A stretch of 64,000 nt of DNA from Patescibacteria group bacterium (GCA_038064495.1 JBBTSZ010000002.1:16717-80716), one strand, 5' to 3'. Shown: positions 1 to 43,101, counted from the stretch's first letter. Numbers and translations are program-made. The notes: generated by a model not told the origin, from the letters alone.

Positions 1-534
1 AGTTGACTCGGTACAGGTGCTTGCACCAGGAACATTCTGGGCAGAAGTCCCTGAACTAGAAGCCCCGTTCTGAATATTTAACTGATTAAGATTACCAATC
101 TGCAAGCTCAAAATCTTCGGATTTATAAGTCCGAATACAATTGCAGGCGAGAGTACAAGCAGCAGGCCATAGAGTGTCTGCACAATAAGATGCCGAGCAT
201 CTTTCTTTTCTGTGATGCTGTCACCGCCCATGTACATAAGCCCTGCACGCATAAGTTGGAGCACTGCAATCACGGCCGCAAGACCAATACAAATTTTATA
301 AATATTATTAAGTACATTCGGAAGACTCTGTGAGTTACCAAACTGCTCAAAAATAGCTAAGTCAGTAAGGGGCTTAAACCCAGTTGAAGTGTCGGTGGGT
401 GCTGCCACGGGAGTAGGAGCTGCCGTGGCTGCATACACGAGGAGACTAAATGAACAGACTAGTATTCCTACAAAAAAAGGAACGACAAAAAGGGTCTTAA
501 CTATGGAAAGGTGTTTTTTAGACATAATGTTCAT
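1..534 (-). CDS. partial (3' end off-window) membrane protein: N-terminal signal/TM plus two further hydrophobic helices; last visible gene of the T4SS-like cluster
   Basis: Open frame on minus strand from ATG at 532-534 (second in-frame ATG at 523-525) to window edge; translation MNIMSKKHLSIVKTLFVVPFFVGILVCSFSLLVYAA... with hydrophobic segments; start is 1 nt after stop of upstream gene (536). Confidence 0.4.
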   Translation of the reverse strand, partial: MNIMSKKHLSIVKTLFVVPFFVGILVCSFSLLVYAATAAPTPVAAPTDTSTGFKPLTDLAIFEQFGNSQSLPNVLNNIYKICIGLAAVIAVLQLMRAGLMYMGGDSITEKKDARHLIVQTLYGLLLVLSPAIVFGLINPKILSLQIGNLNQLNIQNGASSSGTSAQNVPGASTCTEST

Positions 535-535
535 A

Positions 536-1513
536 TCAGAATCCGAATATACCTGAGCGAGGAGCTCCAAAAAGCACTGACAATAACGCAGAAGCACTTT
601 GATGAGTATCGCTGGTTTTTGCCCCGACGCCAACCGTAGCTGAACCAGCACCGCTACCCGTGCTTCTAATCGTAATACTCCTCGTTCCCCCACTACTCTG
701 ACCGTTCACGGTCCAGGTAATGGTTGGGTCTGCGCCAAAGAAGTACGGAACCACCGTCAGACTTTCTTCTGAATCAGTAAGGGTGTACGGACTCTTTAAT
801 GCATGACTAAAAAGTGTTCCAAGAAGCGCATCGGTTTTATAGATCCGAACAATAGGATCTACGGGAGCCACAAGCGTGCTTGCTTGCGCGACGATGGAGC
901 TGTCCAAATTTGTAACCGTGACTGTTATTTTGGCATCTCGATAGCGAACGGGAGCGGTGACTGAAAGCACCGAGCGACCAATACCTGATTGTTCCTGCAG
1001 TATCTGATCACCTGCTTTCCAGCTATAGACCAGGCTTGATTCCGGGATGCGAGTCCCAGCAGCGGTGCGCATATCTGCGATGGCTACAATATGTACCCTT
1101 CCTTCAGGTGCGATAAGGCCACCGCCTTCATAAAAGTAATGTGTGGTAGAAAGAGGTTCTTTCACGAGCGCAACATCTGCCGGACGCACACTAAGCGATT
1201 TGGTATATGTCTTCCCGCCGGTTGTTGCAGTCACCGTTATGGTCGTCGTTTGTCCCGGACCCCCAATGCCAATAGGCACACGCTCCACTCCACTCCCTTT
1301 TTGAACCACCTTCCCATTTACAGAAACAGTGACAACGCTTGCAGACAGGTCAATAACTGTGCTGTCGGCCGTTACAGTTACGGTTTCGTACGGACGAGGA
1401 TAGCCCGGGTTAATAGTGACGTTGAGGGGAGTGACGCCAGTAAATTGCGCGTGAGCTGGAAGCGCGCTGCATAAAAACACCAAGACGATAAGAGGACGAA
1501 AATGCCTCAGCAT
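536..1513 (-). CDS. secreted hypothetical protein (cleavable signal peptide, Thr/Val-rich beta-type)
   Basis: ORF 325 aa; N-terminus MLRHFRPLIVLVFLCSALPAHA^Q fits a Sec signal peptide; tightly packed in operon. Confidence 0.55.
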   Translation of the reverse strand: MLRHFRPLIVLVFLCSALPAHAQFTGVTPLNVTINPGYPRPYETVTVTADSTVIDLSASVVTVSVNGKVVQKGSGVERVPIGIGGPGQTTTITVTATTGGKTYTKSLSVRPADVALVKEPLSTTHYFYEGGGLIAPEGRVHIVAIADMRTAAGTRIPESSLVYSWKAGDQILQEQSGIGRSVLSVTAPVRYRDAKITVTVTNLDSSIVAQASTLVAPVDPIVRIYKTDALLGTLFSHALKSPYTLTDSEESLTVVPYFFGADPTITWTVNGQSSGGTRSITIRSTGSGAGSATVGVGAKTSDTHQSASALLSVLFGAPRSGIFGF

Positions 1514-1550
1514 GGCTACAGTATACCGTGAGAGACCCCTCGGGGTTTAG

Positions 1551-2096
1551 TTAACTGGGTATTGGTTGTTGCTCACTACGAGCACGTCGTGCTTGTCGCG
1601 CCTCAAGGTCCTTTTGTTGTTTCTCAACTCGGGCCTGTCGTATTTGATCTCGAGCACCTGCCCCAGCAGCACGAAGATTTGCAGCACGTAGTGCAATTTT
1701 TGCTTCAGGAGCCATTGCCCCGAGTGTTTTTCCGGCAAGGTGAGAGCCCGTACCTTTTGCGTTTTTCGCTGAATCTTCGTAACGAGTAATCATAATGAGT
1801 ACAATAGTTCCAAGTGTCAGCTCGGGGAGCATATCAAGGAACGGAATGAAGGTAATAACCGAAGTCGCCAGAATGGTTCCAAATTTAAGGAGTACATTTT
1901 TATTGAAATACTGAATACCCAGGAGCCGAAACCAAACCAAAAGACCAATCTCAACGGTTGCTCCGAGCATCATTGCGACAATGGCCCCGAAACCAGTTAA
2001 GTCAGCGAAGAACTGAATGATATCGGTAATACCAGCAAGGCTGACGAGAAGGATTGCACTGAGGCCCGATATTCGTTGCCTCGTTTGCTCACTCAT
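1551..2096 (-). CDS. small polytopic membrane protein with charged Ala/Arg-rich C-terminal tail
   Basis: ORF 181 aa, 3-4 hydrophobic helices; starts 4 nt after VirB4 stop (coupled). Confidence 0.5.
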   Translation of the reverse strand: MSEQTRQRISGLSAILLVSLAGITDIIQFFADLTGFGAIVAMMLGATVEIGLLVWFRLLGIQYFNKNVLLKFGTILATSVITFIPFLDMLPELTLGTIVLIMITRYEDSAKNAKGTGSHLAGKTLGAMAPEAKIALRAANLRAAGAGARDQIRQARVEKQQKDLEARQARRARSEQQPIPS

Positions 2097-2099
2097 AGG

Positions 2100-3929
2100 C
2101 TACGTGCCAGCGGGAGCACTCTCGGCACCCAATCGGTCCTTTTCTCGCTTAATGGCAAGGAGTTGCGATGGGTCTGAGGTGATGATCTGGTCCTCGGTGT
2201 AGGACGCCACTACCTTTATGGCGACATGCTTGAGACCAGCAAAGAACAATCCCTCTCCCACCCCACTTTCAAGAAGTAAGAACTTCTCTTGGTCAGTCAG
2301 GTTAAATGTATCTTTGAGCACATCAATCGTTGTTGGAGATTGCTTTAGGAGAAGTTGGATACTGGAGTTGGTGAGAATCGGCCTACCGTAGGGGCTCTTT
2401 AAGAAGTCTTCGACATCTTGGGTGATGGTTGCGAGCCCGAGGAAATACTTACGACCACGCTTCGCCATACTGAAAAGGAAGGATGCTGTGTCCTCAGACT
2501 TCATCATCCACCAGGCCTCATCAATAACGAGCAAACGTTTCTTAAGCTCATGGCGAACTGCGTTCCATATATAGTGCGTGATGATATACATCGCGATAGG
2601 TTTCAATTCATCCTCCATGTCACGGACCGAGAACACGACAAACTGTTTTTTTATATCTATATTTGACGGACGATTAATAAATCCAGCCCAGGTTCCCTTC
2701 GTGTATTTAGAAAGTCGCTGTACCAAGGACTCGCTCCCTGACATACCTGACAACACAGTCTCAAAATCTGAAAGGAGCGGCGGTTCAACACCGGTAAAGT
2801 CCACATCTCCCGTAATATCCTTCAGGGCATAGGTTTCCGTGATGGCACGGTCCACAATCGCATCCTCTTCAGGCGTAAGTCCCCCAAGCATAAGTCGGAA
2901 GAGCCCGACGAGATTAATGATGTTTGAGCGAAGAATATCTCCCGGTTCCTCATCTTCTTTTACGGGTGGGAGGTCAAACGGATTAATATGATGCTCTGAC
3001 GAGAGAGAAATGTTGAAGGTACGACCGCCGGTAGCTTCTGCAAGGTATTCGTATTCTTGCTCGGGGTCTATCACGATGACATCCGTATCAAACATGAGGG
3101 AGCGAAGAATTTCCAACTTAACTGCGTAGGACTTTCCAGAACCGGATTTTGCAAATACGACTGAGTTGTAGTTCTCAAGTGAGAAACGGTCAAAGAGTAT
3201 GAGGGACGCATTGTGGCGGTTAATACCGTAGAGAATGCCGCGGTCACTTGTGAGGTCAAACGAGACAAACGGAAAAATAGACGAAAGGGGAGACGAATTC
3301 AACTTGCTGTTGACGGCTAGCTCATCAAGAGCAAGGGGAAGTGTGGAGCGGAAGCCCTGCTCTTGTTGGAAGAGTGCAGGCTTGGTGTACACAAGCTTCG
3401 CATCAAGAATGCCTCTGACTTCCCCTTCCACCGTATCAAGTTCTTCTTTGGTGTTTCCATAGAGTGTAAGATACAGCCCCACATCAAAAAGTTTTTCCTC
3501 TGCTTGCTGGAGACGGTCACGAAGACTTTCAAGGTCCTGATAGGCCGTATCAAGAAGCGGGTCACGAACAAGCCCTTTCTCCTCTCGCTCTGAAATCTGG
3601 CTTTGTACTTCAGCCACCTTCTTTTGGAAGTTACGAAGAGCTGCTGCAGTCTCTACGGGATGCACAAAAAGCCCGATATCAAGCTCACGTGCAAGGTTAA
3701 TGATTTGCACGAACCACTCGTCCGTAAGGAAGCGCGGATAGGAGATGGTGTAAAAGGAACGAGAAAACTTTTCACCGAGCTCTATCTCCTTGGCCCCTAC
3801 CTTGAGCGCTGCTGGCGCAATAGCATCAGCCAAATCAAGTGCACCTTGCGCATAGATATCTTTCGGTAAGACCGGCGTGACGCTCGGAGCTTCTTTTTTA
3901 TTACGGTTGATGAAATCAAGAAGTGCCAT
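2100..3929 (-). CDS. virB4: VirB4/TrbE/CagE-family conjugal-transfer ATPase, C-terminal 609-aa portion (Walker A GSGKS, Walker B LLVIDEAWW)
   Basis: Motifs FAKSGSGKSYAVK and RLLVIDEAWWMM in translation; family assignment from established VirB4 signatures. Confidence 0.8.
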   Translation of the reverse strand: MALLDFINRNKKEAPSVTPVLPKDIYAQGALDLADAIAPAALKVGAKEIELGEKFSRSFYTISYPRFLTDEWFVQIINLARELDIGLFVHPVETAAALRNFQKKVAEVQSQISEREEKGLVRDPLLDTAYQDLESLRDRLQQAEEKLFDVGLYLTLYGNTKEELDTVEGEVRGILDAKLVYTKPALFQQEQGFRSTLPLALDELAVNSKLNSSPLSSIFPFVSFDLTSDRGILYGINRHNASLILFDRFSLENYNSVVFAKSGSGKSYAVKLEILRSLMFDTDVIVIDPEQEYEYLAEATGGRTFNISLSSEHHINPFDLPPVKEDEEPGDILRSNIINLVGLFRLMLGGLTPEEDAIVDRAITETYALKDITGDVDFTGVEPPLLSDFETVLSGMSGSESLVQRLSKYTKGTWAGFINRPSNIDIKKQFVVFSVRDMEDELKPIAMYIITHYIWNAVRHELKKRLLVIDEAWWMMKSEDTASFLFSMAKRGRKYFLGLATITQDVEDFLKSPYGRPILTNSSIQLLLKQSPTTIDVLKDTFNLTDQEKFLLLESGVGEGLFFAGLKHVAIKVVASYTEDQIITSDPSQLLAIKREKDRLGAESAPAGT

Positions 3930-3937
3930 ATAAAGAA

Positions 3938-4585
3938 TTAACGACTCGGGGCACCCCCCTCTCCAAAACGGATAGGACTTTCCATTTGGCCAATATTAAA
4001 CGAGCGATACATAAGTTCAATGGTCTCTTCCGTGTTGAGTGGCACGGCACGTATGCCCGCAGACGCGAGTCCTGCGGCAACAAGGGACATGCGCTGCTCT
4101 AACTGCACGCGATCTTCTTGGAACGAGTCACGCTCCCCTCCCCCGGTCCCTTTTTTCATACCCGGAAGAGAGAATGACTGAACCACCTTTGAGGTTCCTG
4201 ACGGGGTGTACGGAACAACGATATAAAACATCTTTGACATAATATCGGTTGAGTCGGTGAAGCCTCGCACAAACTGCATATATTCGCGCACCTGAATACG
4301 CATCAACTCACTCTGTTGTTTCTCCAAGCGCTCACTAAGGAGTGCGAGGTAGGGACGAATATCCATTTTCCGTGAGTGCACCACAATTTCAACGGTAAAA
4401 TCAAGTGTATTCAAAAACGATTGGAATCCACCAATGATTGCTTGCTGCTCGTCTTGAGATTTGAGCGAAAAGTTCAAGGATGAGCACATCATAATGCTCC
4501 GGTACCCATCATCTTTTAAAATAACGATACCGTTACGTACTTCCTTAACGGGTACAAAATCTTGAGTTGCTTGAGGTACAGCCAT
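3938..4585 (-). CDS. VirB4 N-terminal domain-like protein (215 aa); probably the N-terminal part of the same VirB4, separated by a frameshift in a G6 run
   Basis: N-terminus VPVKEVRNGIVILKDDGYRSIMM resembles VirB4/TrbE N-terminal domain; only 8 nt to next start with no RBS; adding one G to the GGGGGG run (minus strand, ~3954-3959) fuses frames to ~830 aa. Confidence 0.5.
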   Translation of the reverse strand: MAVPQATQDFVPVKEVRNGIVILKDDGYRSIMMCSSLNFSLKSQDEQQAIIGGFQSFLNTLDFTVEIVVHSRKMDIRPYLALLSERLEKQQSELMRIQVREYMQFVRGFTDSTDIMSKMFYIVVPYTPSGTSKVVQSFSLPGMKKGTGGGERDSFQEDRVQLEQRMSLVAAGLASAGIRAVPLNTEETIELMYRSFNIGQMESPIRFGEGGAPSR

Positions 4586-4588
4586 ACG

Positions 4589-5002
4589 TTATTTGGGAGC
4601 ATCCTGCTGATCTTTAATATCCAGTGACCAGGCCAATTCACGAAGCTTGTTCTGTGAAAGGCCGAGCTTCTGTCTTGTTTCAACAGGTGGAGCAACAGGA
4701 GCAACCTCCTCTACCTTCGGACTCGCGTCCTTCTTCCAAAGATAGAGCTTTCCCTTTGAATAGTAGGCAACGCCTGCCTCAATGATTTCTATAAAGCTTT
4801 TATTATTTATCTTATAGAACGCGAGTGCGGCAGAAAGAGCCGCAACGGGGATTGAAAGCGCTATACCAAGAAAGAGCGGTAGGTATAGAACGAAAATGGT
4901 GCACAAACCAGCACCCCCAGCGAGGTAGATGAATTGTTTGAGGGTAAACGGACCAAAAATCTTGTCCTCGACTTCAATAAATTGAGGTACCTGATACTCC
5001 AT
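4589..5002 (-). CDS. PrgI/VirB3-like small membrane protein
   Basis: 137 aa, N-terminus MEYQVPQFIEVEDKIFGPFT followed by two hydrophobic helices, positioned immediately upstream of VirB4 as in Gram-positive-type T4SS. Confidence 0.5.
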   Translation of the reverse strand: MEYQVPQFIEVEDKIFGPFTLKQFIYLAGGAGLCTIFVLYLPLFLGIALSIPVAALSAALAFYKINNKSFIEIIEAGVAYYSKGKLYLWKKDASPKVEEVAPVAPPVETRQKLGLSQNKLRELAWSLDIKDQQDAPK

Positions 5003-5050
5003 TACTCCCTAGTATATCAGGAGTTATAAGGTGCTTTGTATAAAACTACT

Positions 5051-5557
5051 CTAGTGATGGCCTCCTCCGTGCGACTTATCTTCTTTTTGACCCCCATGAC
5101 TACTACCTCCACCACCCATTTCCTTTGCTCTACCCCATGCTTGCCAAAAAAAGTGCCATAAAACACCAAAGACTCCACGACCAACACCAATCATTCGACT
5201 AAAAATACCACTATGCTCTCCGTGACTTTCATGAGATGAATGATTACTGACTTCCTCCCCACCTCTCTTACTTGTACTGCTTTCAACTACGTGATTTGGT
5301 TGTTCAGCTGATTCTGGAGTATCTGAGTCAGTAGCTTCTTCACCTCCAGCCGGACCCTCCTCTACTACTGTATATTCCCCATCGACTATTTGGTCACGAG
5401 CATCGAGGTTTCCTCGAATTTCATCGAGCCGCTCCTTTGGAGCCTCAGTATTTGCAGGTACGGGCGGCTGATACGGCACTACATCACGAGACTCACCTTC
5501 CTCAGGGTTCTGTGGTGGCTCCTCGTGGCTACCATTTCCTGGTGGGTTTTCAGACAT
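5051..5557 (-). CDS. acidic Gly/His/Glu-rich low-complexity protein with hydrophobic C-terminal segment
   Basis: ORF 168 aa, compositionally biased; within operon. Confidence 0.35.
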   Translation of the reverse strand: MSENPPGNGSHEEPPQNPEEGESRDVVPYQPPVPANTEAPKERLDEIRGNLDARDQIVDGEYTVVEEGPAGGEEATDSDTPESAEQPNHVVESSTSKRGGEEVSNHSSHESHGEHSGIFSRMIGVGRGVFGVLWHFFWQAWGRAKEMGGGGSSHGGQKEDKSHGGGHH

Positions 5558-5594
5558 GGTTCTAGCCTAGCAAGTAGTCTGCCTGATTGCACAC

Positions 5595-6686
5595 CTAGTG
5601 GAGGGGCTCACGGTACGGGTCTGCACCATAGCTTTCCACAGGATTACTAGGAGAAGCTGCTGAAACTTGCTGCGCAGGAAGAGGTGGAGCGGTAACCGCT
5701 GAGTGTGCAGCAGGTGCTTGAGGACCACCAAACCACGAAGAAGTGCTTTGTTCATGTGGATGAAGCTTTTCTTCCTCCATATCATGAGCCATCGTCCGCA
5801 TTCTTGGCTGTGAAGATTGTGGATTTGGAACGTAGGTATCCGCAGGTGGATTCGGCCTTAGGACAGCTACTTCAGGAGGGACGGGTGCTTGTAGCGGAGG
5901 GGTGACGACCGGCGGTGGTACTGACTGAGCTTGTACCGAAGGCCGAGCAGGAGGTGCCGGAACTACAGGAGGGATAGGTGCTGGAGTCACGGCCGGGGAG
6001 GAGTTCTTCAACATGGAAGGTATTTCAAGGTCATGCATTGGGACGCTAAATCTCTCCGCAAGTGACTTTGCGGAAGAAGCCGTTCCAGTAGGGGTCGAGT
6101 TAGGTGTAATTAAATTAATAGAACGTGGAGGAGTTGTCTCAGCGGGAGCTGAAGGAGCGACAGGAGCAGGGCTCGGTGGAACTATTGCCGGCGCGGGAGG
6201 AGGCGCTGCTGAAATGGCTGGAGGATATGGTGGAGTGCCGGTCGGTAAATTTTGCGGAACTTGCGGCCTCAGTGGAGGCGGAGTAACAGCTATAGGAGTA
6301 ACTACAGGCATTTTCTGAGTAATAGTTACAGGAGGTATCTCAACTGCAGGTGCCCCACTCACTGCTCCAGCCTCTTTCACTTTCTTATTAAGTGGCACGA
6401 ACACCTTCTCATTCAAATCCTTTACGAGATGTTCTGCTACGTCAGCGGGAAGTCCAAGTTCAAGTAGCCCACCATAAAACTCTGTAGGACTTACTAAACC
6501 AAGTAAAGTATTTCGAATTAGTCCCGTTACATTACCAACTATATCTACATGTAGTTGGTAGTTCTTCTGAAGATTAATAACAAAATCAAGCACAGTTTCA
6601 CCACTTAATTCTCCTTGCACAGCCAGCGGAGCCTTGCTGTAGGCTTCTAAAACTTCTTGCTCAGTGAATTGTTTCATATCAAACAC
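5595..6686 (-). CDS. proline-rich protein (N-terminal globular domain + ~250 aa P/A/V-rich region)
   Basis: ORF 363 aa; stop/start abutting neighbours. Confidence 0.5.
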   Translation of the reverse strand: MFDMKQFTEQEVLEAYSKAPLAVQGELSGETVLDFVINLQKNYQLHVDIVGNVTGLIRNTLLGLVSPTEFYGGLLELGLPADVAEHLVKDLNEKVFVPLNKKVKEAGAVSGAPAVEIPPVTITQKMPVVTPIAVTPPPLRPQVPQNLPTGTPPYPPAISAAPPPAPAIVPPSPAPVAPSAPAETTPPRSINLITPNSTPTGTASSAKSLAERFSVPMHDLEIPSMLKNSSPAVTPAPIPPVVPAPPARPSVQAQSVPPPVVTPPLQAPVPPEVAVLRPNPPADTYVPNPQSSQPRMRTMAHDMEEEKLHPHEQSTSSWFGGPQAPAAHSAVTAPPLPAQQVSAASPSNPVESYGADPYREPLH

Positions 6687-9374
6687 CTAAATAATTCCAC
6701 CCCAGCGCCTCCCTGCATCTGGATTCAAAGCTACCCCGCTGGTCATTCCAGTAAGAGCATCAAACCTAACAACTTCAGGTGAAGGTGCACCCGGTGCGGT
6801 GATGAGATTACGTATGTTGGTGATCGCAGTTCCGCTTAATTTATTTGGATCAAGAGCTGCAAGCTGTTCGCCTCGCATAGACCGAATAACATGATTCTGC
6901 TCAATAACAGAAGTAGGAAGCTTACTCACGCTCTCGTTTGTCAAAATGTTCAGTGTGTTCGGTGCATTCGCAACCGAGAAAAGATGGTTCCGGACATCGT
7001 TCATCGTGTTTGCACTCAATTTTCCAAAATCAATATTGTTAATTCGACCCGATGCAGTTAGAGCGTTCAGAGTATCTGTCTTCTTTAAGTTGTATTCAGG
7101 TATTTTCTTGAGAGCATCATCCGACATCGCATCAATGGTTACCCGAGCTCGTACCGGGTCATTGAAACGGTCATCACGAGCCTGTTGGAAGCCGTCTCGA
7201 ACGGACTGAGCGATATTTTTATTACTACCCACTTTATCGGCTTGGTCTTCCCGAACTACTGAGACAAAGTCGTAATCGCTTAATAACGAAGCACTTGCCT
7301 TCGATTGTGCAATTTGCTCAAAGCCTCGTTCACCCAATTTCTTAATCGCTGCATTAGCAGCATCACGAGCAGCAGTCCGTATCGGTGGAGCTTTCGTTGC
7401 ATCATTTGCTATGGCGAGACTCTCGCGAATCCCAACGTGGCGATTATCAAGCAGTCTTGCCTTCAGGTCCTCTGGCGTATCCTTGTACTTTAGAAGACTG
7501 CCAATTTTCTCATCAGAGAAAGCTTCAGCAACAGCTCTCCCTCCTTCTTGTACGGCATGTGATTTAAGTAGTTGTTCTTCTGAAAGCCCGTTAAGGAAAG
7601 TGGTTGTCTCTGCACTAAGAGCTCCTGCACGCGCTTCATCCTCAAGTTTTTGGAACGCCACTTCGTCGTCATACTTTTTCTTTAGCCCCTTGCCATACGT
7701 CCCGCTCTTAGCATCTGCAAAGACATGTCTAGTATCACTAAAGGTCGCGCCCTTGGATGGAATTGCTCCCGCCTTTATATCAGCGAGACCGAGTGCAGTC
7801 TGTGCAAGAGGGAGCCGTCGCGCATCAAGATTAGCACTTTGAAGCGGGCGCAGGATACGATTTACGGCAACTTGCCCGACCTTACCCCCGAACCCAGTTT
7901 TTTGCTGGAAACGTTGGAGTCCATACGCGTATCCTCCTACAGCCAGATTTGTTCCACGCGTCATGGTTCCAAACACAAGCGCACTCGCCGAGTTAACTGC
8001 AAAGTTTGAACCAAGCACACCCATACGACGTGAGGCGATGAGAGACATCATCATGAATCCGATAACAATGAAGAACAACACAAACGCTTGAAGATTTTGC
8101 GAAGCTCCAGCTACTGCCCCACCTGCGACAGCCTGCCCCAGATCACCCGTGGTACCAAGTCCAGAGCCAATCTTGATACTAATAAGAATGAGTAGCAGGT
8201 ATACCGGAGCAAAAAATGATTCGTTAAGAAGAAGACTCCACCAACGTTCAGCAAGTTTATGAAGTAAAGGCACTGCCATACCCGCAAAACCTATAGGAGA
8301 CGTCACAATTAAGAACACGAGAACAACCGCACGGCTGATAAGCATAATAGTCCCTGCGAGCAAGACAATCGCCACAATAGTGATGAGCAAAGAGTAAATC
8401 AACAAAAGAGTGATTTTCTCAAGAGGAGAACTACCTGTGGTAGAAGGGTCCGATCTAAAACCAAGAAACGTAGAACCACCGGTTAATTGCATAATCTGCC
8501 CCGAAATACCTTCATTAGCGCACGTCGTTGAGTCAGCACCAGTACAATTTGTACCAGCCTGTTCCGCAAGGACTGATGAGAAACCGTTAGCCACGTCAAT
8601 CACTGCTTCTGCAGCAAACAAACTAAAGTTAAGCAGTATCGCAAAGATAATAAGAGCAGGCAGCGCTCGCTTTGCCGTGAACTCCGACCGTTCAAGATTT
8701 AAAATAGTACTGACGCCCATGAAGATGAATCCGAATAAGAGAACTATATTGCCAACGTCTCGGAGTACTCCCCATGCAATCAAAAGACCTTCCGAGTTAC
8801 CAAAGTACTGAGCAAACTCAAATACCGTTTTGATAATGGTCCAGTTAAAAACGACACCGACAATCGTAAGAATCCATCCCGCAAGCGTAAACACTGCATA
8901 GCTAAGTGGGTAGAGTGTGACAGCAAGAAAACTATCTGCCAACCATCCAAACACGTCCGGGAATACTGAACTTGTTTCACTCGTACAACTTCCGTTCGCT
9001 GCACAGTTCGTGGTCGTACTCGCGAAATAGTTATTTTGAGAACCGGTTGAACCTAACAGTTTTCCAGAGGCATCTTTTGCAGTACACCCCTCATCCGAGA
9101 CGGCTGCTTCAGCACCACCACCAGCGGTACAGGTTGCGGTGCTACCAGCAGGATTTGTACAAGTATAGACCGTACTACCGAAACTGATCTCTGAAGTACA
9201 CGTCCAACCAGTACCGTACTTACCGGGGTTATTTGTGAGTGCCTCGGGCACGGTAGCTGCAAGGGTAATAGGGGCAACGCCAAATAAAACAAACAAGAAA
9301 GCAGTCCCCAGAAGAGCTCTACCCATCTTTTTTTGTATTAGGAAAGTGTTCACGGCAAGTGAAGCTATATACAA
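6687..9374 (-). CDS. VirB6/TrbL-like polytopic membrane protein with signal peptide and long soluble C-terminal extension
   Basis: 895 aa; N-terminal signal, Cys/Thr-rich ectodomain, then >=6 hydrophobic helices, then ~400 aa charged/alpha-helical tail; topology typical of VirB6-family channel proteins (inference). Confidence 0.5.
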   Translation of the reverse strand: MYIASLAVNTFLIQKKMGRALLGTAFLFVLFGVAPITLAATVPEALTNNPGKYGTGWTCTSEISFGSTVYTCTNPAGSTATCTAGGGAEAAVSDEGCTAKDASGKLLGSTGSQNNYFASTTTNCAANGSCTSETSSVFPDVFGWLADSFLAVTLYPLSYAVFTLAGWILTIVGVVFNWTIIKTVFEFAQYFGNSEGLLIAWGVLRDVGNIVLLFGFIFMGVSTILNLERSEFTAKRALPALIIFAILLNFSLFAAEAVIDVANGFSSVLAEQAGTNCTGADSTTCANEGISGQIMQLTGGSTFLGFRSDPSTTGSSPLEKITLLLIYSLLITIVAIVLLAGTIMLISRAVVLVFLIVTSPIGFAGMAVPLLHKLAERWWSLLLNESFFAPVYLLLILISIKIGSGLGTTGDLGQAVAGGAVAGASQNLQAFVLFFIVIGFMMMSLIASRRMGVLGSNFAVNSASALVFGTMTRGTNLAVGGYAYGLQRFQQKTGFGGKVGQVAVNRILRPLQSANLDARRLPLAQTALGLADIKAGAIPSKGATFSDTRHVFADAKSGTYGKGLKKKYDDEVAFQKLEDEARAGALSAETTTFLNGLSEEQLLKSHAVQEGGRAVAEAFSDEKIGSLLKYKDTPEDLKARLLDNRHVGIRESLAIANDATKAPPIRTAARDAANAAIKKLGERGFEQIAQSKASASLLSDYDFVSVVREDQADKVGSNKNIAQSVRDGFQQARDDRFNDPVRARVTIDAMSDDALKKIPEYNLKKTDTLNALTASGRINNIDFGKLSANTMNDVRNHLFSVANAPNTLNILTNESVSKLPTSVIEQNHVIRSMRGEQLAALDPNKLSGTAITNIRNLITAPGAPSPEVVRFDALTGMTSGVALNPDAGRRWGGII

Positions 9375-10891
9375 GGGCTAGCAGCAACAGTAAGCATTTT
9401 TGTGAAGAGCGATGGGGTTGTCTCAGAATCAGTAGCTACACTTTGTTCTTGGGCATACGTAATGTCGCTAATACTTGGCATAGAATTACTACCCAAAAGT
9501 GTCTGATAGGCTGCAGATGCTGTTGCAACTGCGCTTGTCTGGGTCTTTGCACTACCTCCAGACGCCCCGAGGTCAGCAATGATTTGATCAATAGTGTTAA
9601 TTGCAGCCCCAGCATTTGCGATTGCTGTTGTACCTTGCGTAATAATCGTCTGAACTTGAGACGCATTTGGACTATTCTGTGCACAGCTTGAGTTTTGGAT
9701 AGCAGTTTTTGCAGAATTTGCCGCGTCAGCTATCTTTGTCCAGTTTGTTTGGTACGCTTGCAACTGTACTTTTTGCTGCCCAAGCGTCGTAACAAAGTTG
9801 GTGCTTAAGTTCGAGTTGGCCGAGGCGTTACTATACTGAGTAGAATCAGCAGCCTGGTCTATAAAGGAACGTCCTCCTCCTGAACTTGGTTGAGAAAGGC
9901 CTCCAAGACCTGTTCCCCCAACTACGTTACTAACTAATTGTCCGATAAGCGCACCCACAATCTCGTTTAGTTCATCAGAAGAAGTAAGCTGGTCTACCGA
10001 ACTACCCAGGGTTTTGGTGAGTTGATCGTGAATGATAGCTCCTGGAGTGACAATATTTTGATGCAGACACGGAACAGTTCCTGATAGTTTTACCGACGGA
10101 GTTAATACTACTGGTGAAGTAGGTGTTGTAGGAGTGCCGTTGAAATTAAGAATTCCACCAGCCTGATTTACAGTTGTAGATGTATTTGAGGAGGCACAAT
10201 CACCCTGCCATGAGAGGAAACCATTTCCCCAACTCAGTTTTGTTTTCTCAGTATCTACCTGATTCGCTATTTGTTGTTTGAGGGCGTCGCGCTGAAGTAA
10301 ATCAGCACCAAATGGATTGTTTGCCGGGTTTGCTATTGCTGAAAAGAAAGCATCCCAACCACCCCCTTCTACAAATCGACCTTCATAGAGTGCATTCGGA
10401 TCATTGCTTACCTGATTTAGCGTATACGGATTTTGAAGGAAGAAACCATCACGTGTTGTTGAGATGAAGTAATCTCTACGGAGGGCAGCTGTTAAAACAT
10501 CTTGAAACGGTGACGTGATTGCTGTGTTTGTTTCAAGCTGATTCAAGAAATCATTAGCAACGGTGTCCCCCACCTTTAGGAGTCGCGTATCAAGATCAGT
10601 AATAAAAGCGGGAGAACCTTTAAAGCCAGAGTTAATCCAGTTAACGACACTCTTTGTTACCGACTGAAGTGCCACCTTACTTACGATGTAGGCAAGCGGA
10701 TCAAGAGCAAATTCCTTAACGTTCAAGGTAGTGTTTTGAACTGCTGAAAGTGAGTTAACAACATGGTTAGCTGGGTCGTACACAATGAACGCCCGTGTCG
10801 TACGAGGAAATGAGAGTACACCAATAAAGACAATACTGATAAGTCCTACACAAGTACGAAGCAAAAACTGATTTAAAGTAGTGGAACTCAT
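9365..10891 (-). CDS. membrane-anchored extracellular protein (N-terminal TM anchor), unknown function
   Basis: ORF 508 aa; overlaps neighbours by 10 and 4 nt. Confidence 0.5.
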   Translation of the reverse strand: MSSTTLNQFLLRTCVGLISIVFIGVLSFPRTTRAFIVYDPANHVVNSLSAVQNTTLNVKEFALDPLAYIVSKVALQSVTKSVVNWINSGFKGSPAFITDLDTRLLKVGDTVANDFLNQLETNTAITSPFQDVLTAALRRDYFISTTRDGFFLQNPYTLNQVSNDPNALYEGRFVEGGGWDAFFSAIANPANNPFGADLLQRDALKQQIANQVDTEKTKLSWGNGFLSWQGDCASSNTSTTVNQAGGILNFNGTPTTPTSPVVLTPSVKLSGTVPCLHQNIVTPGAIIHDQLTKTLGSSVDQLTSSDELNEIVGALIGQLVSNVVGGTGLGGLSQPSSGGGRSFIDQAADSTQYSNASANSNLSTNFVTTLGQQKVQLQAYQTNWTKIADAANSAKTAIQNSSCAQNSPNASQVQTIITQGTTAIANAGAAINTIDQIIADLGASGGSAKTQTSAVATASAAYQTLLGSNSMPSISDITYAQEQSVATDSETTPSLFTKMLTVAASPCI

Positions 10892-11889
10892 GGTTTCGTG
10901 TTTTGTGTTACCGCAGCAGTTTTAAAAGCGGCTCTCATAGCGGAACCAGTTGCTCCATCCGGAATCACAACTGCTTCAGAATCAAAAACGGTATTAAGTA
11001 GGCTAAGACTCCTCGCCATTTGTTGAAGCGTATTTTCATACGAACTAAGACCAATCATCGCGCGAAGCGGGTCCACTTTAATGCTCGCAAGGTCCAAAAT
11101 AACGTCGCTCATGTGCATGAGTGAGTTTGCAAGTCCAAGGTGTGCCGCCGCGGCTTCTTTCGGTACTGATATTTTCATCATCGCCTGTGCAATCTTCTGA
11201 TAATCCGTACCAATAAGAGTTACTTTTGCTAATGATGCAGCATCCCCTTTATTTACTGCGTCTGAAAAGTATTCAACTTCAGACTTCGTAGTCGGTGTGG
11301 TGTTAGCAGCAAAGGTTTTTTCTAGATCAGCCGCATAACGCGTAAGTGCTTCAGGACCCTCACCGGACACGCGTATCTGCCCCTGATTAAAGGCGTCCGG
11401 AACGACCTGGCTCGCCTTCAAATCTCCAACCCCAGCTTCCACAAACTTCACAATATCAGCCTGGGTAGGAGGAGTCGCGCCTCGCGTGCTGAGGTACTGC
11501 TCAAATAATTTGCGAGAAAACTGGTCGGTAACGGTAGTTGCTCCAGCAGTAACGCCAGGAATAGAGCTTATGTTTACCGGTGTGGTTGTTGCAGTTGCAA
11601 ACTTTGGCTTCACGAGGCCTTGGTTTACTGCTTCCCCATCGGTTACTTGTGCGTTTACGGAGTGAGCATTGTCCGGGTCGGTGCCATAGAGCGCTTCCTC
11701 CCAGTCCGGAAGGCCATCAGTGTCAGTGTCTTTTGCAGCATAGGTAACCAGGAGGTCGTGGGTTGATTCTGCGTCAACGGTTTTCGTGAAAAAAGGAACC
11801 GGACCGGAGACGACATAGGCCGAACCAATGAGCACTATGGAGATAGCTGATGCTGAAATGATGAGGGTGGTACGGGTAGAATAAGCCAC
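10888..11889 (-). CDS. membrane-anchored protein with Asp-rich (DTDxDGxPDWEE) calcium-binding-like motif; first gene of cluster
   Basis: ORF 333 aa; N-terminal hydrophobic helix; motif DTDTDGLPDWEEALYGTDPD. Confidence 0.5.
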   Translation of the reverse strand: MAYSTRTTLIISASAISIVLIGSAYVVSGPVPFFTKTVDAESTHDLLVTYAAKDTDTDGLPDWEEALYGTDPDNAHSVNAQVTDGEAVNQGLVKPKFATATTTPVNISSIPGVTAGATTVTDQFSRKLFEQYLSTRGATPPTQADIVKFVEAGVGDLKASQVVPDAFNQGQIRVSGEGPEALTRYAADLEKTFAANTTPTTKSEVEYFSDAVNKGDAASLAKVTLIGTDYQKIAQAMMKISVPKEAAAAHLGLANSLMHMSDVILDLASIKVDPLRAMIGLSSYENTLQQMARSLSLLNTVFDSEAVVIPDGATGSAMRAAFKTAAVTQNTKP

Positions 11890-14873: not shown

Positions 14874-16073
14874 TTGATTACAGACGACACTCCAGAGTTC
14901 CCCTTCTTCCTTATATTGTCTTTCTATAAAACTTTCGCTTCGGTGCTTTGCCGATTGAATCGAAATGCATATCTCGCAAGCACCCTTACCACCCTTGTGG
15001 GAGCTCTCTCGCTAGCCTCATCGCTAGCGTTTCCTATTACAACCAACGCCTATTGGTTGCCTTGGACTATATCCTTTGCCGGAAATCCAGGGGGTGAACC
15101 ACCTATCATTCACGATAGCAGCATTCCCCTCCTTCAGGCAGCAGTGAACTCGGACCCAAATCCAGAAAAGGGTGGGAGTGATATTCAACTCACCGAGGGC
15201 TCGGCGCTCATGGCCAACTCAGGCCCAGAAGGCACCCTTGCCGACATTGATATGACCTCATCTGCCGGACAAATTACCACCTACGTGGTACGTCCGGGCG
15301 ACACCATTTCCAACATCGCGAGGAATTTTGGTGTCTCCGCAAACACCATTTTGTGGGCTAACAACCTCACAACGAAGAGCAAGGTAACGCCAGGCACGAC
15401 TCTCGTTATTCTTCCGGTCTCCGGTCTTCAACACAAAGTAACAAAGGGCGAAACCCTTGCTGGTATTGCGAAGAAATTTAAAGCAGACGCAGGCGACGTT
15501 GCTTCCTATAACGGCCTCTCTGTCGGAGACGGCCTTACCGTTGGTGACATTCTCATAATTCCTGGAGGCGAACTCTCCGTTGCTTCAAGTAAAACGGCAA
15601 CGAGCGGTAAGACCAAAACCAACATTAAACAAGGTGGTGGGCTCGTCAGTATTTTGAAGAATCCCTACCGTGGTGGAAGTGGTGCTGAAATAGATGGTTA
15701 CTACACGAACCCCGTACCGGGCGGACTCCTCACCCAAGGCATCCATGGCTGGAACGGTGTTGATCTCGGTGCGCCTGCAGGTACACCGGTGTACGCAGCG
15801 GCAGGCGGAACGGTTATCGTCTCACGCGTCGGCGGATGGAACGGTGGTTACGGTAACTACATTGTTATCGATCATGGCAATGGAACCCAGACACTCTACT
15901 CCCATCTTTCAAGTGATAATGTTTCGGTAGGACAAACGGTTTCTCGTGCCGCAGCTATTGGTGCCGTAGGACACACCGGTGAAGCGACCGGAAACCATCT
16001 CCACTTTGAGGTTCGTGGTGCGCGGAATCCATTTGCGGGATGTACGGCCATGACCCACTGCTCTCCGAAGTAA
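14874..16073 (+). CDS. LysM-domain M23 family metallopeptidase (cell-wall endopeptidase)
   Basis: Two LysM-like repeats (YVVRPGDTISNIARNFG..., HKVTKGETLAGIAKKF...) and M23 motifs HxxxD/HLHFE; signal-like segment; start may be an in-frame TTG at 14955. Confidence 0.85.
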   Translation: MITDDTPEFPFFLILSFYKTFASVLCRLNRNAYLASTLTTLVGALSLASSLAFPITTNAYWLPWTISFAGNPGGEPPIIHDSSIPLLQAAVNSDPNPEKGGSDIQLTEGSALMANSGPEGTLADIDMTSSAGQITTYVVRPGDTISNIARNFGVSANTILWANNLTTKSKVTPGTTLVILPVSGLQHKVTKGETLAGIAKKFKADAGDVASYNGLSVGDGLTVGDILIIPGGELSVASSKTATSGKTKTNIKQGGGLVSILKNPYRGGSGAEIDGYYTNPVPGGLLTQGIHGWNGVDLGAPAGTPVYAAAGGTVIVSRVGGWNGGYGNYIVIDHGNGTQTLYSHLSSDNVSVGQTVSRAAAIGAVGHTGEATGNHLHFEVRGARNPFAGCTAMTHCSPK

Positions 16074-16101
16074 AAATCCCCTCGCATGAGGGGATTTTTA
16101 T
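16072..16101. terminator. bidirectional intrinsic terminator between convergent genes
   Basis: AAAAATCCCCTCGCATGAGGGGATTTTTA. Confidence 0.6.
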
Positions 16102-17642
16102 TCAAACCCAAACAACCCACGTGGCCGATACTGCAACGCTTCAAGAATATGAGATGGCTCAACCTTCTCGCTACCCGCGAGGTCCGCAATTGTGCGGGCG
16201 ACCCGCATCACTCGGTGATACGCACGCGGAGAAAGCTGTAATTTTGTTGCCGCAGATAGAAGCGTACTCCGGGCTCCGTCCGTAAATGCTCCAACTTTGT
16301 CTAATTCTTTTGCTGAAAGCAATGCGTTGCTCATGGAGTCACTTCCATGACGCTTTCGCGCAAGCTTTCGTGCGGAAAGCACCCGCTTACGTACGGTAAC
16401 GGAGGATTCTCCTTCAGTTAAGCTCGCCAAATCTTCATGTGCTACGTGTGGCACCTCAACCCACAAATCAAGACGGTCAGCGATAGGTCGTGAAATCTTT
16501 CGTGCTTGCTTGCGGGCAGCCCTCACCGCAACGTCACTATCAGCTGAAAGCGTGTCTGCAGGATTCATCGCCGCAACGAGCATACTGTCTGCCGGAAAGG
16601 TGATGGTTGCACGTGCGCGCGACACGGTGACCACCTTGTCTTCCAGTGGCTGACGCAGTGCCTCAAGGGTGCGCGCATCAAATTCCGGAAACTCATCGAG
16701 AAATAAAACCCCTTTGTGTGCGAGGGTTACTTCACCGGCACGTGGATACGCTCCCCCACCCACCATCGCCGTATGGGAAATCGTGTGATGCGGCGAACGA
16801 AACGGCGGATGGCGCACGGGCCCATCTGAAAGGGTGCCTGCTGTTGAATGGATAGCAGTAACCTCAAGCACCTCGTCCTCGGTTAAGGGTGGCAAGATAC
16901 CGGAAAGTGCACGCGCAAGCATCGTCTTTCCGGTTCCAGGTGGTCCATACAACACGAGGTTATGCCGTCCGGCTGCTGCTATTTCAAGCGCACGCTTCGC
17001 ACTCTCCTGCCCTTTTATCTCAGCAAGGTTCAGTACAATCGGTGCCTCTTCAGTTACCACAGTACGCTCTTTTTCTTCCAAAAGCTTATCGCCTTTCAAA
17101 TGGGCAACGAGCGCGCTAAGGGTCTCTGGCGCGTACACGCGAATGCCCTGTGCAAGAAGTGCTTCGTGTACATTTCCAGGCGGTACAAAGACACTCGTAT
17201 AACCGGCACCTTTCGCTGCAACCACTTGAGGTAATACACCGCGCACCGTGCGTAGCTTTCCATCAAGAGAGAGTTCTCCACAAAACAAAACGGGTTCTTT
17301 CGGAATAGATAGTTCCCCGGCAGCGGCAAGGTAGCAAAGCGCGAGCGCGACATCATAGTGCGAACCCTCTTTTTTCAAGTCCGCAGGAGAAAGCGAGAGT
17401 ACAATACGCCGGTTCTCTGCTTTCGGAGATTTAAATCCACTGTGACGAATCGCAGCTGCAATACGGTCCCGAGCTTCTTCAACAGCTTTATCTGCAAGAC
17501 CGACTATGGAAAAGGAGTGAAGACCCCGCGTAAGGTCAGCCTCTATCGTTACGAGCTCCGCCTTCGCGCCAACAGGCTGGGCCGCGTACAAGGAACCATA
17601 CCCATGGGTTTCAATCTTGCGAGCGGTGGGAGAAGCGGCCAC
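16098..17642 (-). CDS. comM: YifB/ComM family Mg-chelatase-like AAA+ ATPase
   Basis: Walker [11 protein letters not shown], ChlI-type motifs, N-terminal Lon-like domain. Confidence 0.85.
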
Positions 17643-18050: not shown

Positions 18051-19418
18051 CTACTGTTGCTTTGTGGCAGACAGGCGGTTTATGAGTTCAGCGAATGCAG
18101 ATTCGTCTCGCGCAACGATAAGGGTGGATTTATCACGATATCCGTACAAGAAAATGGTGCGTCCCTGACTATCCTTGAGTGCTCGTACATCATGGTTGCT
18201 TGCGACTTCGTCTACGAACTGTGGAGGGCGAATAATCTGCACGGGTGCGGGAATAGTTTGTACGGTCGTTACCAGTTTTCCTTTTACAAAAGTTGTTGAG
18301 GTAGCGTAGGTAGGAAGCAGAGCCGCAGGAGGGTCATACGCTGGATAGAGTTGAGCGAGTTCTGTCTCCATCAGCCCCTCCCACGTGAGCATGCCGGCAA
18401 AGGTTCGTTCATAGGAAAGCACACGAAGGATGAAGAAAGGCCTGGTCTCAGCTCCTGCATGCACAATACCGACAGTACTCTCTGGAGCGATGTTACGAAG
18501 AAGGATGTCGGGTGCCGCAAGCTGGAGCGCACCAAAGAGTCTTCCTCCAGGAAGTGCAATATCCATAACTGGGTTACCTGCGCTTGTGGATGCCTGACTC
18601 AGGTAAAGTACTCGCACTTGTCCCACGCTAAGTGGCTGGCGAGCAGATTCATTCAAGGCTGCGATAAGCGTATCCCCCTCTCCTTTCACGGGTTGGCGGT
18701 CATCAGCAAAGACAAGCGATGAGACCACCGGACCAGCAAGCGGTACGCTAGCGTGGCTACGTACATAGGTGTAGGCGGCATAGGCTCCCCCACCGGCAAG
18801 CAGAATAAGCACAAAACTAAAAGCGACAAGGAGCGCATTCTTATGCTGTTTCACCGCTTGCGCGGGTTGTGTAGCAAGTTTTCCCGCATCTCCTTCAGCA
18901 GCTAGTACAGAGAAGGTAGAAGCTTGTTTAGTATCAATACGGTCTGAGAAATCAGAACTATAGGTATGTATCGGCGAGACGTTTTCGAGTGATACCGGAG
19001 TGGGAGCTGGCGCGGGTGGGACGAACTCTTGCGGAGCAACAGGAACCGGGACCGGTGGAGGTGGTGGTAAGTTAGGAAGCGGTGCTGGAGGCGGCGCAGG
19101 CTGCGGAACAACAGGCGGAGCAGGAACTGGTTCAGGAGTCACGGGAAGTGCACTGTTCGGGATAGAAGCAGCTAGTGGCGTGGGGGTGGGCATGGTCCCT
19201 GGCAAGAAGTCACCCTCTTGTACCGGATCATACTTCGCACGCGCGCGAAGCCGCTCAAGTACCTCGTCCCGTTCCACAGGCGCCGGTCCTCCTGCAATCG
19301 GCGTGCCAGGAATTACCGGAGCTTTTCCAGAAAGCGCCGCAACGTCCTTCGCGTAGGTACGAATATATGACTGGGTCGAATCATCGGCCATAGTATTCCT
19401 TAAAGTATAACCGCTCAC
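18051..19418 (-). CDS. bitopic membrane protein with proline-rich N-terminal region
   Basis: ORF 455 aa; PxP-rich stretch then single TM (LLVAFSFVLILLAGGGAYAAYTYV) then ~240-aa domain. Confidence 0.5.
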   Translation of the reverse strand: MSGYTLRNTMADDSTQSYIRTYAKDVAALSGKAPVIPGTPIAGGPAPVERDEVLERLRARAKYDPVQEGDFLPGTMPTPTPLAASIPNSALPVTPEPVPAPPVVPQPAPPPAPLPNLPPPPPVPVPVAPQEFVPPAPAPTPVSLENVSPIHTYSSDFSDRIDTKQASTFSVLAAEGDAGKLATQPAQAVKQHKNALLVAFSFVLILLAGGGAYAAYTYVRSHASVPLAGPVVSSLVFADDRQPVKGEGDTLIAALNESARQPLSVGQVRVLYLSQASTSAGNPVMDIALPGGRLFGALQLAAPDILLRNIAPESTVGIVHAGAETRPFFILRVLSYERTFAGMLTWEGLMETELAQLYPAYDPPAALLPTYATSTTFVKGKLVTTVQTIPAPVQIIRPPQFVDEVASNHDVRALKDSQGRTIFLYGYRDKSTLIVARDESAFAELINRLSATKQQ

Positions 19419-20571: not shown

Positions 20572-21489
20572 ATGGATGCCGAAACGCTTAAGCGACAATT
20601 CCTTGAACACACAGAAATCGAGCGCGGACGTGCCGTAAAGACGATTCAAAACTACGACCACTACCTCACGGTGTTGTTTCGGGAAATGAAGATAGCCAGT
20701 GTTATTGATATTACTGAGGAGAAGATTCGCGAATTCCGCTTGTGGTTGAATCGACAACCCGGAACAGGGAGCGACACCATGAAGCGCCGCACGCAAAACT
20801 ACTATCTCATTGCACTACGTGCTTTTCTGAAATATCTCCGAAAACGAGGCATAGATGGCCTGAACCCTGAGCGTATTGAGCTTGCCAAAGTACCTGAACG
20901 CTCGCTTGACCTTATTACCGCGACCGAGCTTGAGCGCCTGATGGAAGCCCCAAAGAACGCTATGGAAAAGGAACAGAATCCTGAGAAGGCGCTTCGGTAT
21001 GCCCGCGATACAGCCATTTTAGAGCTCCTTTTCTCCACGGGACTTCGTGTTTCTGAGCTCTGTGCACTTAATACCGACATAGATTTATCTCGAGACGAAA
21101 TCTCGGTTCGCGGAAAAGGAGACAAAGTTCGGGTGGTATTCCTATCCCCTGCTTCAAAAGACGCAGTTCGTGCGTATCAGAAACTCCGCAAGGATATGGA
21201 GGAGGCCCTCTTTCTTGAGGGTAGACCTGATAAGCTCCATCGCATTACGCCCCGTGATATACAGCGCCACATTAAGACGTATGCGGCGCAGGCAGGCATC
21301 ACCAGCAAGGTTACGCCCCACACGCTTCGGCACGTGTTCGCCACTGACTTGCTCAGTAATGGAGCTGATATTCGCTCAGTCCAGGCACTTCTGGGCCATG
21401 CCTCCATCACGACTACCCAGATTTATACGCACGTGACCGATGTGCACCTCCGAGAGGTACACAAACGTTTCCACTCACGACAAAAATAA
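20572..21489 (+). CDS. tyrosine site-specific recombinase, XerC/XerD-like
   Basis: Catalytic motifs HTLRHVFAT and LLGHASITTTQIYTHV. Confidence 0.85.
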   Translation: MDAETLKRQFLEHTEIERGRAVKTIQNYDHYLTVLFREMKIASVIDITEEKIREFRLWLNRQPGTGSDTMKRRTQNYYLIALRAFLKYLRKRGIDGLNPERIELAKVPERSLDLITATELERLMEAPKNAMEKEQNPEKALRYARDTAILELLFSTGLRVSELCALNTDIDLSRDEISVRGKGDKVRVVFLSPASKDAVRAYQKLRKDMEEALFLEGRPDKLHRITPRDIQRHIKTYAAQAGITSKVTPHTLRHVFATDLLSNGADIRSVQALLGHASITTTQIYTHVTDVHLREVHKRFHSRQK

Positions 21490-27933: not shown

Positions 27934-28203
27934 CATGTCAGTCTGACGGACATTTTGCCCTCTTGCGAAAAACACCCTTTTGTTGAGCCGTCCTCTGCGA
28001 TCTCGTCCTTCAGGCCTCTCTTATTGAGACGTATGGAGAATAGGACTTTTTTTCTTGTCCAATCATCAAGAGGTTATTCGAATTTGTAGATTCTAACCCT
28101 ACCAACCCACAAATATTCACCGATGGAACTAATACCTCAGTGACAGGGCCAACACAATAAATCAAGGATTTGAAAAAAATCACTTTGTGTTGTCATTTGA
28201 GTT

Positions 28204-28797: not shown

Positions 28798-28806
28798 GTA
28801 ATATTA

Positions 28807-28831
28807 GGGGGCACCTTCGGGTGCCTCTTTC
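28807..28831 (+). terminator. intrinsic terminator
   Basis: GGGGCACCTTCGGGTGCCTCTTTCTT. Confidence 0.55.
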
Positions 28832-28840
28832 TTATGTCGA

Positions 28841-28870
28841 GGGACTTAGGGACTACAGGTACGTAATTCA
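28841..28870 (+). repeat. 30-bp direct repeat, copy 1 (GGGACTTAGGGACTACAGGTACGTAATTCA)
   Basis: 27/30 identical to copy at 30445-30474; both intergenic. Confidence 0.6.
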
Positions 28871-28972
28871 AGTTTTTTGCTTTGGTTTACGCCCTTCCTT
28901 AGCTCCATTCTTATACTTGGTCTACGCAACGCTCACGATTGCTTTTTGTTCCCACAGGAGTATCGTTAAACC

Positions 28973-29614: not shown

Positions 29615-29699
29615 TACTGACAAGGTCCTAAGAGCTACTTAGATAGTACTGTCTTCTAGGGATCTAGATTCAATAACGCTCATAATCTTCTCTATCACC

Positions 29700-37387: not shown

Positions 37388-37460
37388 TTCTCCACGATTG
37401 CACCATATACGCGCCGCATCTTCTCGTGCGGCGCGTTATACTTTTAGCAAGCATCTTTCT

Positions 37461-39215: not shown

Positions 39216-39232
39216 GAGGACATCCTCACATT

Positions 39233-43099: not shown

Positions 43100-43101
43100 T
43101 T

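Follow-up and report, generated by a model that had tools for sequence, protein, structure and literature searches.

The window analyzed here is a 64,000-nucleotide (nt) stretch of DNA from a Patescibacteria group bacterium (GCA_038064495.1, JBBTSZ010000002.1:16717-80716), and the array of minus-strand genes at its left end very likely encodes the chromosomal type IV secretion system (T4SS) of Patescibacteria, in the arrangement seen in Paceibacteria and with a relationship to monoderm conjugation machinery (MPF-FATA). A sizeable part of bacterial diversity consists of Patescibacteria, which spend their lives attached to other microbial cells. To our knowledge, no T4SS other than theirs has been found essential to the survival of the bacterium that carries it. 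An earlier sequence-only reading of this DNA took the cluster for its best candidate for an undescribed system, but the system is already known from work published between 2023 and 2025: a T4SS proved essential in Southlakia epibionticum (Wang et al. 2023; PMC10633639), the system was then found to be phylum-wide, with VirB4 in 2,417 of 3,035 Patescibacteria genomes (Quinonero-Coronel et al. 2025; PMC12102498), and a 2025 review treats it as a recognized newcomer (PMC12857230). The locus is thus no new kind of system but a clean, complete Paceibacteria example of this one, and new biology could come from the accessory genes, not from the identity of the T4SS.

Gene array and T4SS core

From position 11889 down to 1, an open reading frame (ORF) listing and a six-frame read of the edge give ten complete minus-strand ORFs (536-11889) and an eleventh, with its start at 525-534, that extends past the left window edge (Table 1), matching the eleven genes first counted. 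With a 413-amino acid (aa) gene beyond that edge, the cluster totals 12 genes, seven of them accessory and encoding lineage-specific envelope proteins that accompany the core. The genes for the 333- and 508-aa proteins overlap by 4 nt, and the remaining intergenic gaps measure 0-48 nt. Of the spacing originally proposed (overlaps of 4-10 nt and gaps of at most 40 nt), the 4-nt overlap thus stands, whereas the largest gap is 48 nt and the 10-nt overlap depends on a TTG start for the 895-aa gene; the ATG at 9326 chosen in the public gene call yields 879 aa and a 38-nt gap. Since a promoter and terminator scan returned sites no more frequently than chance and was uninformative, the term "operon" rests here on spacing and conserved order. 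For comparison, relatives were scanned at one genome per species; at least 574 loci encode a VirB4 relative, and the best 80 of these, at 73-92% VirB4 identity, form the comparative set against which all window proteins were searched. Orthologs in the same order in these 80 other species genomes show that the genes of the array are not chance ORFs.

Table 1. Genes of the T4SS cluster, in array order, and a second envelope machine in the window.
Feature	Position	Strand	Basis or remark
Membrane-anchored protein, 333 aa	10888..11889	-	First gene of array
Secreted or anchored all-helical protein, 508 aa	9365..10891	-	
Extended VirB6/TrbL-like polytopic protein (probable), 895/879 aa	6687..9374	-	Probable true start ATG 9326 (879 aa)
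Proline-rich protein, 363/360 aa	5595..6686	-	Composition; family searches gave nothing
Acidic Gly/His-rich protein, 168 aa	5051..5557	-	Lineage-variable addition
PrgI/VirB3-like small membrane protein, 137 aa	4589..5002	-	PF12666
TrsD-like protein (VirB4 N-terminal domain), 215 aa	3938..4585	-	NCBIfam VirB4 models, N-termini
VirB4-type ATPase, C-terminal motor part, 609 aa	2100..3929	-	NF045971
Polytopic membrane protein, 3-4 transmembrane segments, 181 aa	1551..2096	-	Position conserved
Secreted beta-rich protein, 325 aa	536..1513	-	Signal peptide, weak Cadherin-like match
VirB2/TrbC-like T4SS pilin, 175 of 306 aa inside window	1..525	-	Ortholog matches to PF18895
Type IV pilus gene set, second distinct envelope machine	37398-44526	+	Pfam

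The VirB4-type ATPase matches the NCBIfam model NF045971 (conju_CD1110) at E = 6e-110 and 368.7 bits, above the cut-off of 325, over model positions 183-733 of 752. It also matches the Pfam families P-loop_TraG (4e-24) and AAA_10 and, among PDB entries, the solved VirB4 C-terminal domain 4ag5 (E = 1.8e-42) and TrwK (E = 6e-7), and its Walker A (AKSGSGKS; 3129-3152, aa 260-267) and Walker B (LLVIDE; 2517-2534, aa 466-471) motifs are intact in all 78 VirB4 orthologs. The 215-aa ORF upstream of it matches just the N-termini of two VirB4 models, NF045975 (E = 6e-9, model positions 103-233) and NF045971 (E = 2e-6, model positions 2-102); the TrsD model itself scores under its cut-off (E = 0.0055), and the public precomputed annotation assigns PF26593 (TraC-like). 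Because this ORF supplies the N-terminal ~180 model positions missing from the ATPase, VirB4 function is split over two genes, as it is in TrsD/TrsE of pGO1, and a separate TrsD-like ORF of ~210 aa is found in 79 of the 80 loci. The VirB4-type ATPase noticed at the outset is thereby upheld, with the correction that "VirB4" here comprises two genes. VirB4 identity has a median of 76.5%, vs 56.5% for DnaA in the same loci, and is the higher of the two in 55 of 58, a difference that is somewhat inflated because the loci were chosen by VirB4 similarity; these values indicate that VirB4 is under strong purifying selection and more tightly constrained than the DnaA of those genomes. A requirement of the system for host-dependent growth has been demonstrated for Southlakia only (PMC10633639); for the present cluster, the strong conservation of VirB4 is what speaks for it.

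The 137-aa protein matches Pfam PF12666 (E = 1.6e-9; 38.6 bits, cut-off 27), in agreement with its initial designation as PrgI/VirB3-like, and its gene occurs in 76 of the 80 loci, where it immediately precedes the TrsD and VirB4 genes and stands two genes upstream of virB4. By analogy with other systems, this protein would tether VirB4 to the membrane.

The 895-aa protein has a signal or anchor helix followed by about seven further transmembrane (TM) segments, a Cys-rich N-terminal ectodomain (8 Cys), and a coiled-coil-like C-terminal tail of ~415 aa with 25% charged residues, an architecture close to that first reported (a signal peptide and a ~400-aa charged tail). Its match to Pfam TrbL (E = 2.4e-4) covers model positions 24-213 of 215, and six of 38 orthologs match TrbL (best 1.9e-7) and one of 38 matches TrbL_4; a profile search of the family against PDB sequences returned no VirB6 match. 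On ortholog support and context (topology and position), it is probably an extended VirB6/TrbL-like protein, and the ~7 TM helices and large hydrophilic C-terminal region fit the "extended VirB6" class (PMC12857230).

The sequence-only reading saw no obvious pilin, but the ORF cut by the window edge is VirB2/TrbC-like. The fragment inside the window gives sub-threshold matches to Pfam TrbC (E = 6e-4) and T4SS_pilin (E = 1e-3), while 36 of 41 orthologs match PF18895 T4SS_pilin (best 3e-11) and 22 of 41 match TrbC; from these ortholog matches, we conclude that a pilin gene is present at the edge. In the full-length protein of 306 aa (L001:10989-11909, corresponding to window positions 1-525 plus 396 nt past the edge), a signal peptide and two hydrophobic helices are accompanied by a C-terminal extension that is variable. 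Across the pilin orthologs (L005-L084), a pilin part of ~140 aa is conserved and the length of the extension is highly variable, such that whole proteins range from 134 to 580 aa. The extension of the window copy is rich in Cys (the 306-aa protein has 12), and, noted together with the Cys-rich ectodomain of the VirB6-like protein, it may represent a disulfide-stabilized, fast-evolving surface domain on the pilus.

Chromosomal context and the question of mobility

Leftward continuation of the cluster could be followed on public contigs, since a sequence identical to the 325-aa protein is found on several, including a 93-kb contig of GCA_964357455.1; identical proteins in NCBI carry locus tags AAB472_00090 and AAB472_00130 under "Patescibacteria group bacterium," on a contig of up to 566 kb. 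On the public contig, the rest of the pilin gene is followed by a single same-strand gene of 413 aa and then, on the opposite strand, by yidC and rnpA, with dnaA and dnaN beyond. To the right of the cluster, Pfam matches identify ksgA/rsmA and genes for a UvrD/PcrA helicase, an M23/LysM peptidase, and a ComM-like protein. Whole or in part, the order uvrD-ksgA-[cluster]-yidC-rnpA-dnaA-dnaN is seen in the 80 loci examined, which come mostly from metagenome-assembled genomes (MAGs) named Paceibacterota, Paceibacteria, Kaiserbacteria, Parcubacteria, Nomurabacteria, or Patescibacteria, the rest being labeled "bacterium." Written out by gene or product length, the recurring order is uvrD-ksgA-333-508-VirB6-363-PrgI-TrsD-VirB4-(membrane protein)-325-pilin-413-yidC-rnpA-dnaA-dnaN, with the 413-aa gene detected in 66, the pilin gene in 58, and dnaA in 60 of the 80 loci, and with the pilin and 413-aa genes swapped in a few. 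This conservation indicates that the cluster is part of the core chromosome, next to the replication origin, and has been passed on vertically, and that it is not an integrative and conjugative element (ICE).

An ICE or integrated plasmid, of which the cluster would be the transfer module moving DNA between cells, does draw some encouragement from the genes themselves: the VirB4 is closest to a conjugation ATPase model of the CD1110/CTn2 type, PrgI and TrbL are conjugation families, and a tyrosine recombinase gene lies in the window at 20572-21489. We nevertheless consider this origin extremely improbable. Neither a relaxase nor a coupling protein (VirD4, or type IV coupling protein, T4CP) was found in the cluster, in the ~10 kb on its left, or by Pfam among 20 larger window ORFs; the sequence-only reading, too, saw neither inside the window. 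The cluster is flanked by the housekeeping genes ksgA and yidC/rnpA/dnaA, and among the 80 species genomes, these genes keep the same order in all fetched flanks long enough to include them; divergence follows the genome and not a mobile element, and the GC content of the cluster is like that of its flanks. The recombinase gene is 9 kb away, past other housekeeping genes, and published surveys record relaxases in just 103 of 3,035 genomes. A mobile element was therefore rejected on synteny and on the absent relaxase and T4CP, in line with the initial view of a T4SS-like machine with a possible role other than plasmid conjugation. The recombinase itself (plus strand, 305 aa) has a Phage_integrase domain and an N-terminal SAM-like domain, and is probably a housekeeping enzyme of the Xer type and not a mobile-element integrase.

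Several points weigh against assignment to the Patescibacteria T4SS as we describe it. The 21.4-bit TrbL score of the 895-aa protein falls under the Pfam cut-off of 25.9, and the pilin assignment is likewise under cut-off for this copy and depends on orthologs and context. Within the cluster, neither a VirB8-like protein (NTF2 fold) nor a VirB1-like hydrolase was identified. The coupling protein absent from the regions searched could be encoded elsewhere in the genome. Transcription of the array as a single operon is suggested by gene spacing, and VirB4 is placed in the published Patescibacteria clade on the presumption that it follows the taxonomy of its relatives.

Accessory proteins and possible functions

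The envelope proteins that surround the core diverge fast, with median identities of 29-37% across the 80 loci. The 333-aa protein, anchored by a TM segment at residues 9-27 and extracytoplasmic, carries a four-helix-bundle domain and a thrombospondin-type-3 (TSP3) Ca-binding motif with invariant D54, D56, D58, and D62. Its ortholog in one MAG (L078:3119-4021) contains an in-frame stop codon, for which a pseudogene, an assembly error, or recoding are possible explanations. The 508-aa protein carries the conserved WINSGF-GSP and TPGS motifs and has a three-helix bundle at its C terminus. The 363-aa protein consists of a helical N-domain of ~100 aa and a long proline-rich region (18.7% Pro overall), with no TM segment found and no match in Pfam or NCBIfam searches; the slot after VirB6 that it occupies is filled by an ORF in 46 of 47 loci; this ORF is proline-rich in the nearer relatives, whereas in the more distant ones it is acidic. 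Two proline-rich proteins had been listed here, and only this one is clearly so in the range. The second may be a 455-aa protein outside the cluster (18051-19418, minus strand), whose N-terminal half is long and rich in proline and which has a single TM segment and no match in Pfam.

The acidic His/Gly-rich protein listed in the sequence-only reading is the 168-aa product (D+E 18.5%, G 15.5%, H 6.5%). It has no Pfam or NCBIfam match and no tblastn match in the 80 related loci, and a Gly-rich ORF fills its slot in only a few relatives; the gene is a local, lineage-variable addition. The 181-aa protein, which also lacks a meaningful Pfam or NCBIfam match, evolves fast while its position is conserved: in most loci examined, a protein with 2-5 TM segments is encoded between virB4 and the 325-aa gene, with sequence similarity mostly lost. 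The 325-aa gene is present in 77 of the 80 loci, and its product has a signal peptide ending in AQ (invariant A22 and Q23), a conserved C-terminal FG[FL], and a weak Pfam Cadherin-like match (E = 0.0096), with PF12733 precomputed in several homologs; the family has no match among PDB sequences. It probably forms tandem immunoglobulin (Ig)/cadherin-like sandwiches and is a candidate surface or pilus-associated adhesin. The 413-aa protein beyond the left edge combines an N-terminal TM helix with a beta-rich domain; its family gave nothing in a Pfam search and a weak profile match to a TolB propeller (E = 0.019). Profile searches of the 333-, 508-, 325-, 895-, and 413-aa families against PDB sequences returned only the TSP3/Ca-motif match, coiled-coil noise, and the weak TolB match, and two predicted structures were generic helical bundles only.

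A secreted M23 peptidase with two LysM domains is encoded 3 kb from the cluster, divergently from uvrD (14874-16073, plus strand). It is the nearest candidate for a VirB1-like wall hydrolase, and proteins like it have been counted as VirB1-like and virB4-associated in Paceibacteria (PMC12102498).

If the machine works as other T4SSs do, a VirB4 hexamer would dock on PrgI and VirB6 at the cytoplasmic membrane and spend ATP to pull pilin from the membrane, and the extracted pilin would polymerize into a wall-crossing pilus of the conjugative type, or a conduit, in contact with the host cell carrying the ultrasmall bacterium. What passes through such a conduit has been judged differently. Wang et al. 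(PMC10633639) propose protein export or an alternative role because a relaxase and a nearby T4CP are lacking. Quinonero-Coronel et al. (PMC12102498) suggest import of DNA or other macromolecules, and a 2026 preprint on the cultivated relative strain OT8 describes uptake of host RNA and tubular structures that may be T4SS pili.

The first of these ideas, that the system exports effectors or other proteins or builds nothing more than an adhesive pilus with which to attach to the host and manipulate it, with no transfer of nucleic acid, is one we regard as possible and hold tentatively. Beyond the missing relaxase and T4CP, it is consistent with the existence of protein-exporting T4SSs that lack a T4CP (Ptl, Brucella VirB) and with the wealth of secreted or surface proteins in the cluster, including the Ig-like 325-aa protein, the helical 508-aa protein, and the Cys-rich pilin extension. 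It is weakened by the lack of recognizable effector candidates or secretion signals and by the type IV pili, which already provide adhesion in studied relatives and for which the window holds a gene set (37398-44526).

Somewhat unlikely, in our judgment, is a dedicated nucleic-acid import machine that, like Helicobacter ComB or archaeal Ced, would draw host DNA or RNA as a source of nucleotides. In its favor, Patescibacteria lack nucleotide synthesis; in Southlakia, the T4SS genes and pilin array are essential for epibiotic growth and ComEC is not (PMC10633639, PMC12857230), and the host RNA uptake and possible T4SS pili of strain OT8 point the same way, as does a weak partial CedB match (E = 9e-10). 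That match, however, amounts to 37.8 bits against a cut-off of 700, and the one to CedD to 19.6 bits against 600, both confined to the shared P-loop region; Pfam and NCBIfam searches of the cluster proteins found no ComB-type VirB7, VirB9, or VirB10 match and no nucleic-acid-binding domain in any of them, and the literature offers no direct evidence for the T4SS as the uptake route. Membership in the archaeal Ced or Helicobacter ComB systems was rejected on the sub-cut-off CedB and CedD scores and the missing VirB7/VirB9/VirB10-like matches.

As speculation, we slightly favor a host-tapping role that supports import. In a more specific proposal, which we think quite unlikely, the Paceibacteria-specific accessory set would form an extracellular or wall-spanning module that, together with the VirB2-like pilin and its variable Cys-rich surface domain, takes the place of VirB1, VirB5, and VirB8; the core of a monoderm conjugation system would thereby become a conduit that pierces the host and takes up its RNA or DNA. 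To this module would belong the Ca-binding anchor with its four-helix bundle, the helical 508-aa, proline-rich, and fast-evolving polytopic proteins, the secreted Ig-like protein, and the TolB-like product of the 413-aa gene.

Elsewhere in the window, the type IV pilus set comprises a PilB-type ATPase (T2SSE, E = 5e-122), PilC (T2SSF), a protein of 580 aa bearing CarboxypepD_reg domains, a prepilin of 228 aa that carries an N-methylation motif, and a protein of 474 aa that gave no Pfam match. Competence and DNA-processing genes at 16098-17642 (minus strand) and at 46883-48616, 49199-50683, and 51901-52776 (plus strand) encode a ComM-like Mg-chelatase ATPase, RecJ, ComEC (Competence and DUF4131), and a separate metallo-beta-lactamase-fold protein, so that a conventional route for DNA uptake is present alongside the T4SS. 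At 28001-30000, GC content dips to 42%, vs about 50% elsewhere, across short ORFs (197, 213, and 120 aa).

Comparison with known systems

With the Agrobacterium VirB/VirD4 system (MPF-T) the cluster shares VirB2-, VirB3-, and VirB4-type parts and, probably, a VirB6-type part, and the VirB4-driven assembly of a pilus would be the same in both. Several features link the cluster to the monoderm MPF-FATA systems (Prg/Pcf of pCF10, CD1110 of CTn2, and Trs of pGO1): the VirB4 here is closest to the CD1110 model, above cut-off, PrgI is common to both, a separate TrsD N-domain protein occurs as in pGO1, and there is no outer-membrane core. Parts of MPF-FATA systems that were not found here are the relaxase, PcfC/T4CP, a PrgK-type hydrolase, a PrgL/VirB8-like protein, and the PrgB adhesin, whereas the VirB2-like pilin found here is absent from monoderm systems, and the locus is chromosomal and vertically inherited.

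The Southlakia T4SS (SEML1_0006-0019; PMC10633639) shares the core of VirB4-, VirB3-, and, probably, VirB6-type proteins with VirB2-like pilins and is likewise without a recognizable relaxase or coupling protein in its cluster, and its low locus-tag numbers suggest a position near the start of the numbered genome. Southlakia belongs to a different class (Saccharimonadia) and has an array of six pilins with peptidase and lysozyme genes adjacent, whereas the cluster described here has one pilin gene, no hydrolase inside it, and different accessory genes.

The closest counterpart is the Paceibacteria T4SS described by Quinonero-Coronel et al. (PMC12102498), for which VirB4, TrsD, PrgI/VirB3, VirB6, and VirB2-like pilins are listed, with a relaxase almost always absent and a genomic context of dnaA, dnaN, rnpA, and ksgA. 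The same set of parts, with VirB6 as a probable member, is present here, likewise without a relaxase, on the chromosome, and near those same genes, so that nothing essential differs; what this example adds to the published description is a set of observations on the accessory genes and the Cys-rich extension of the pilin.

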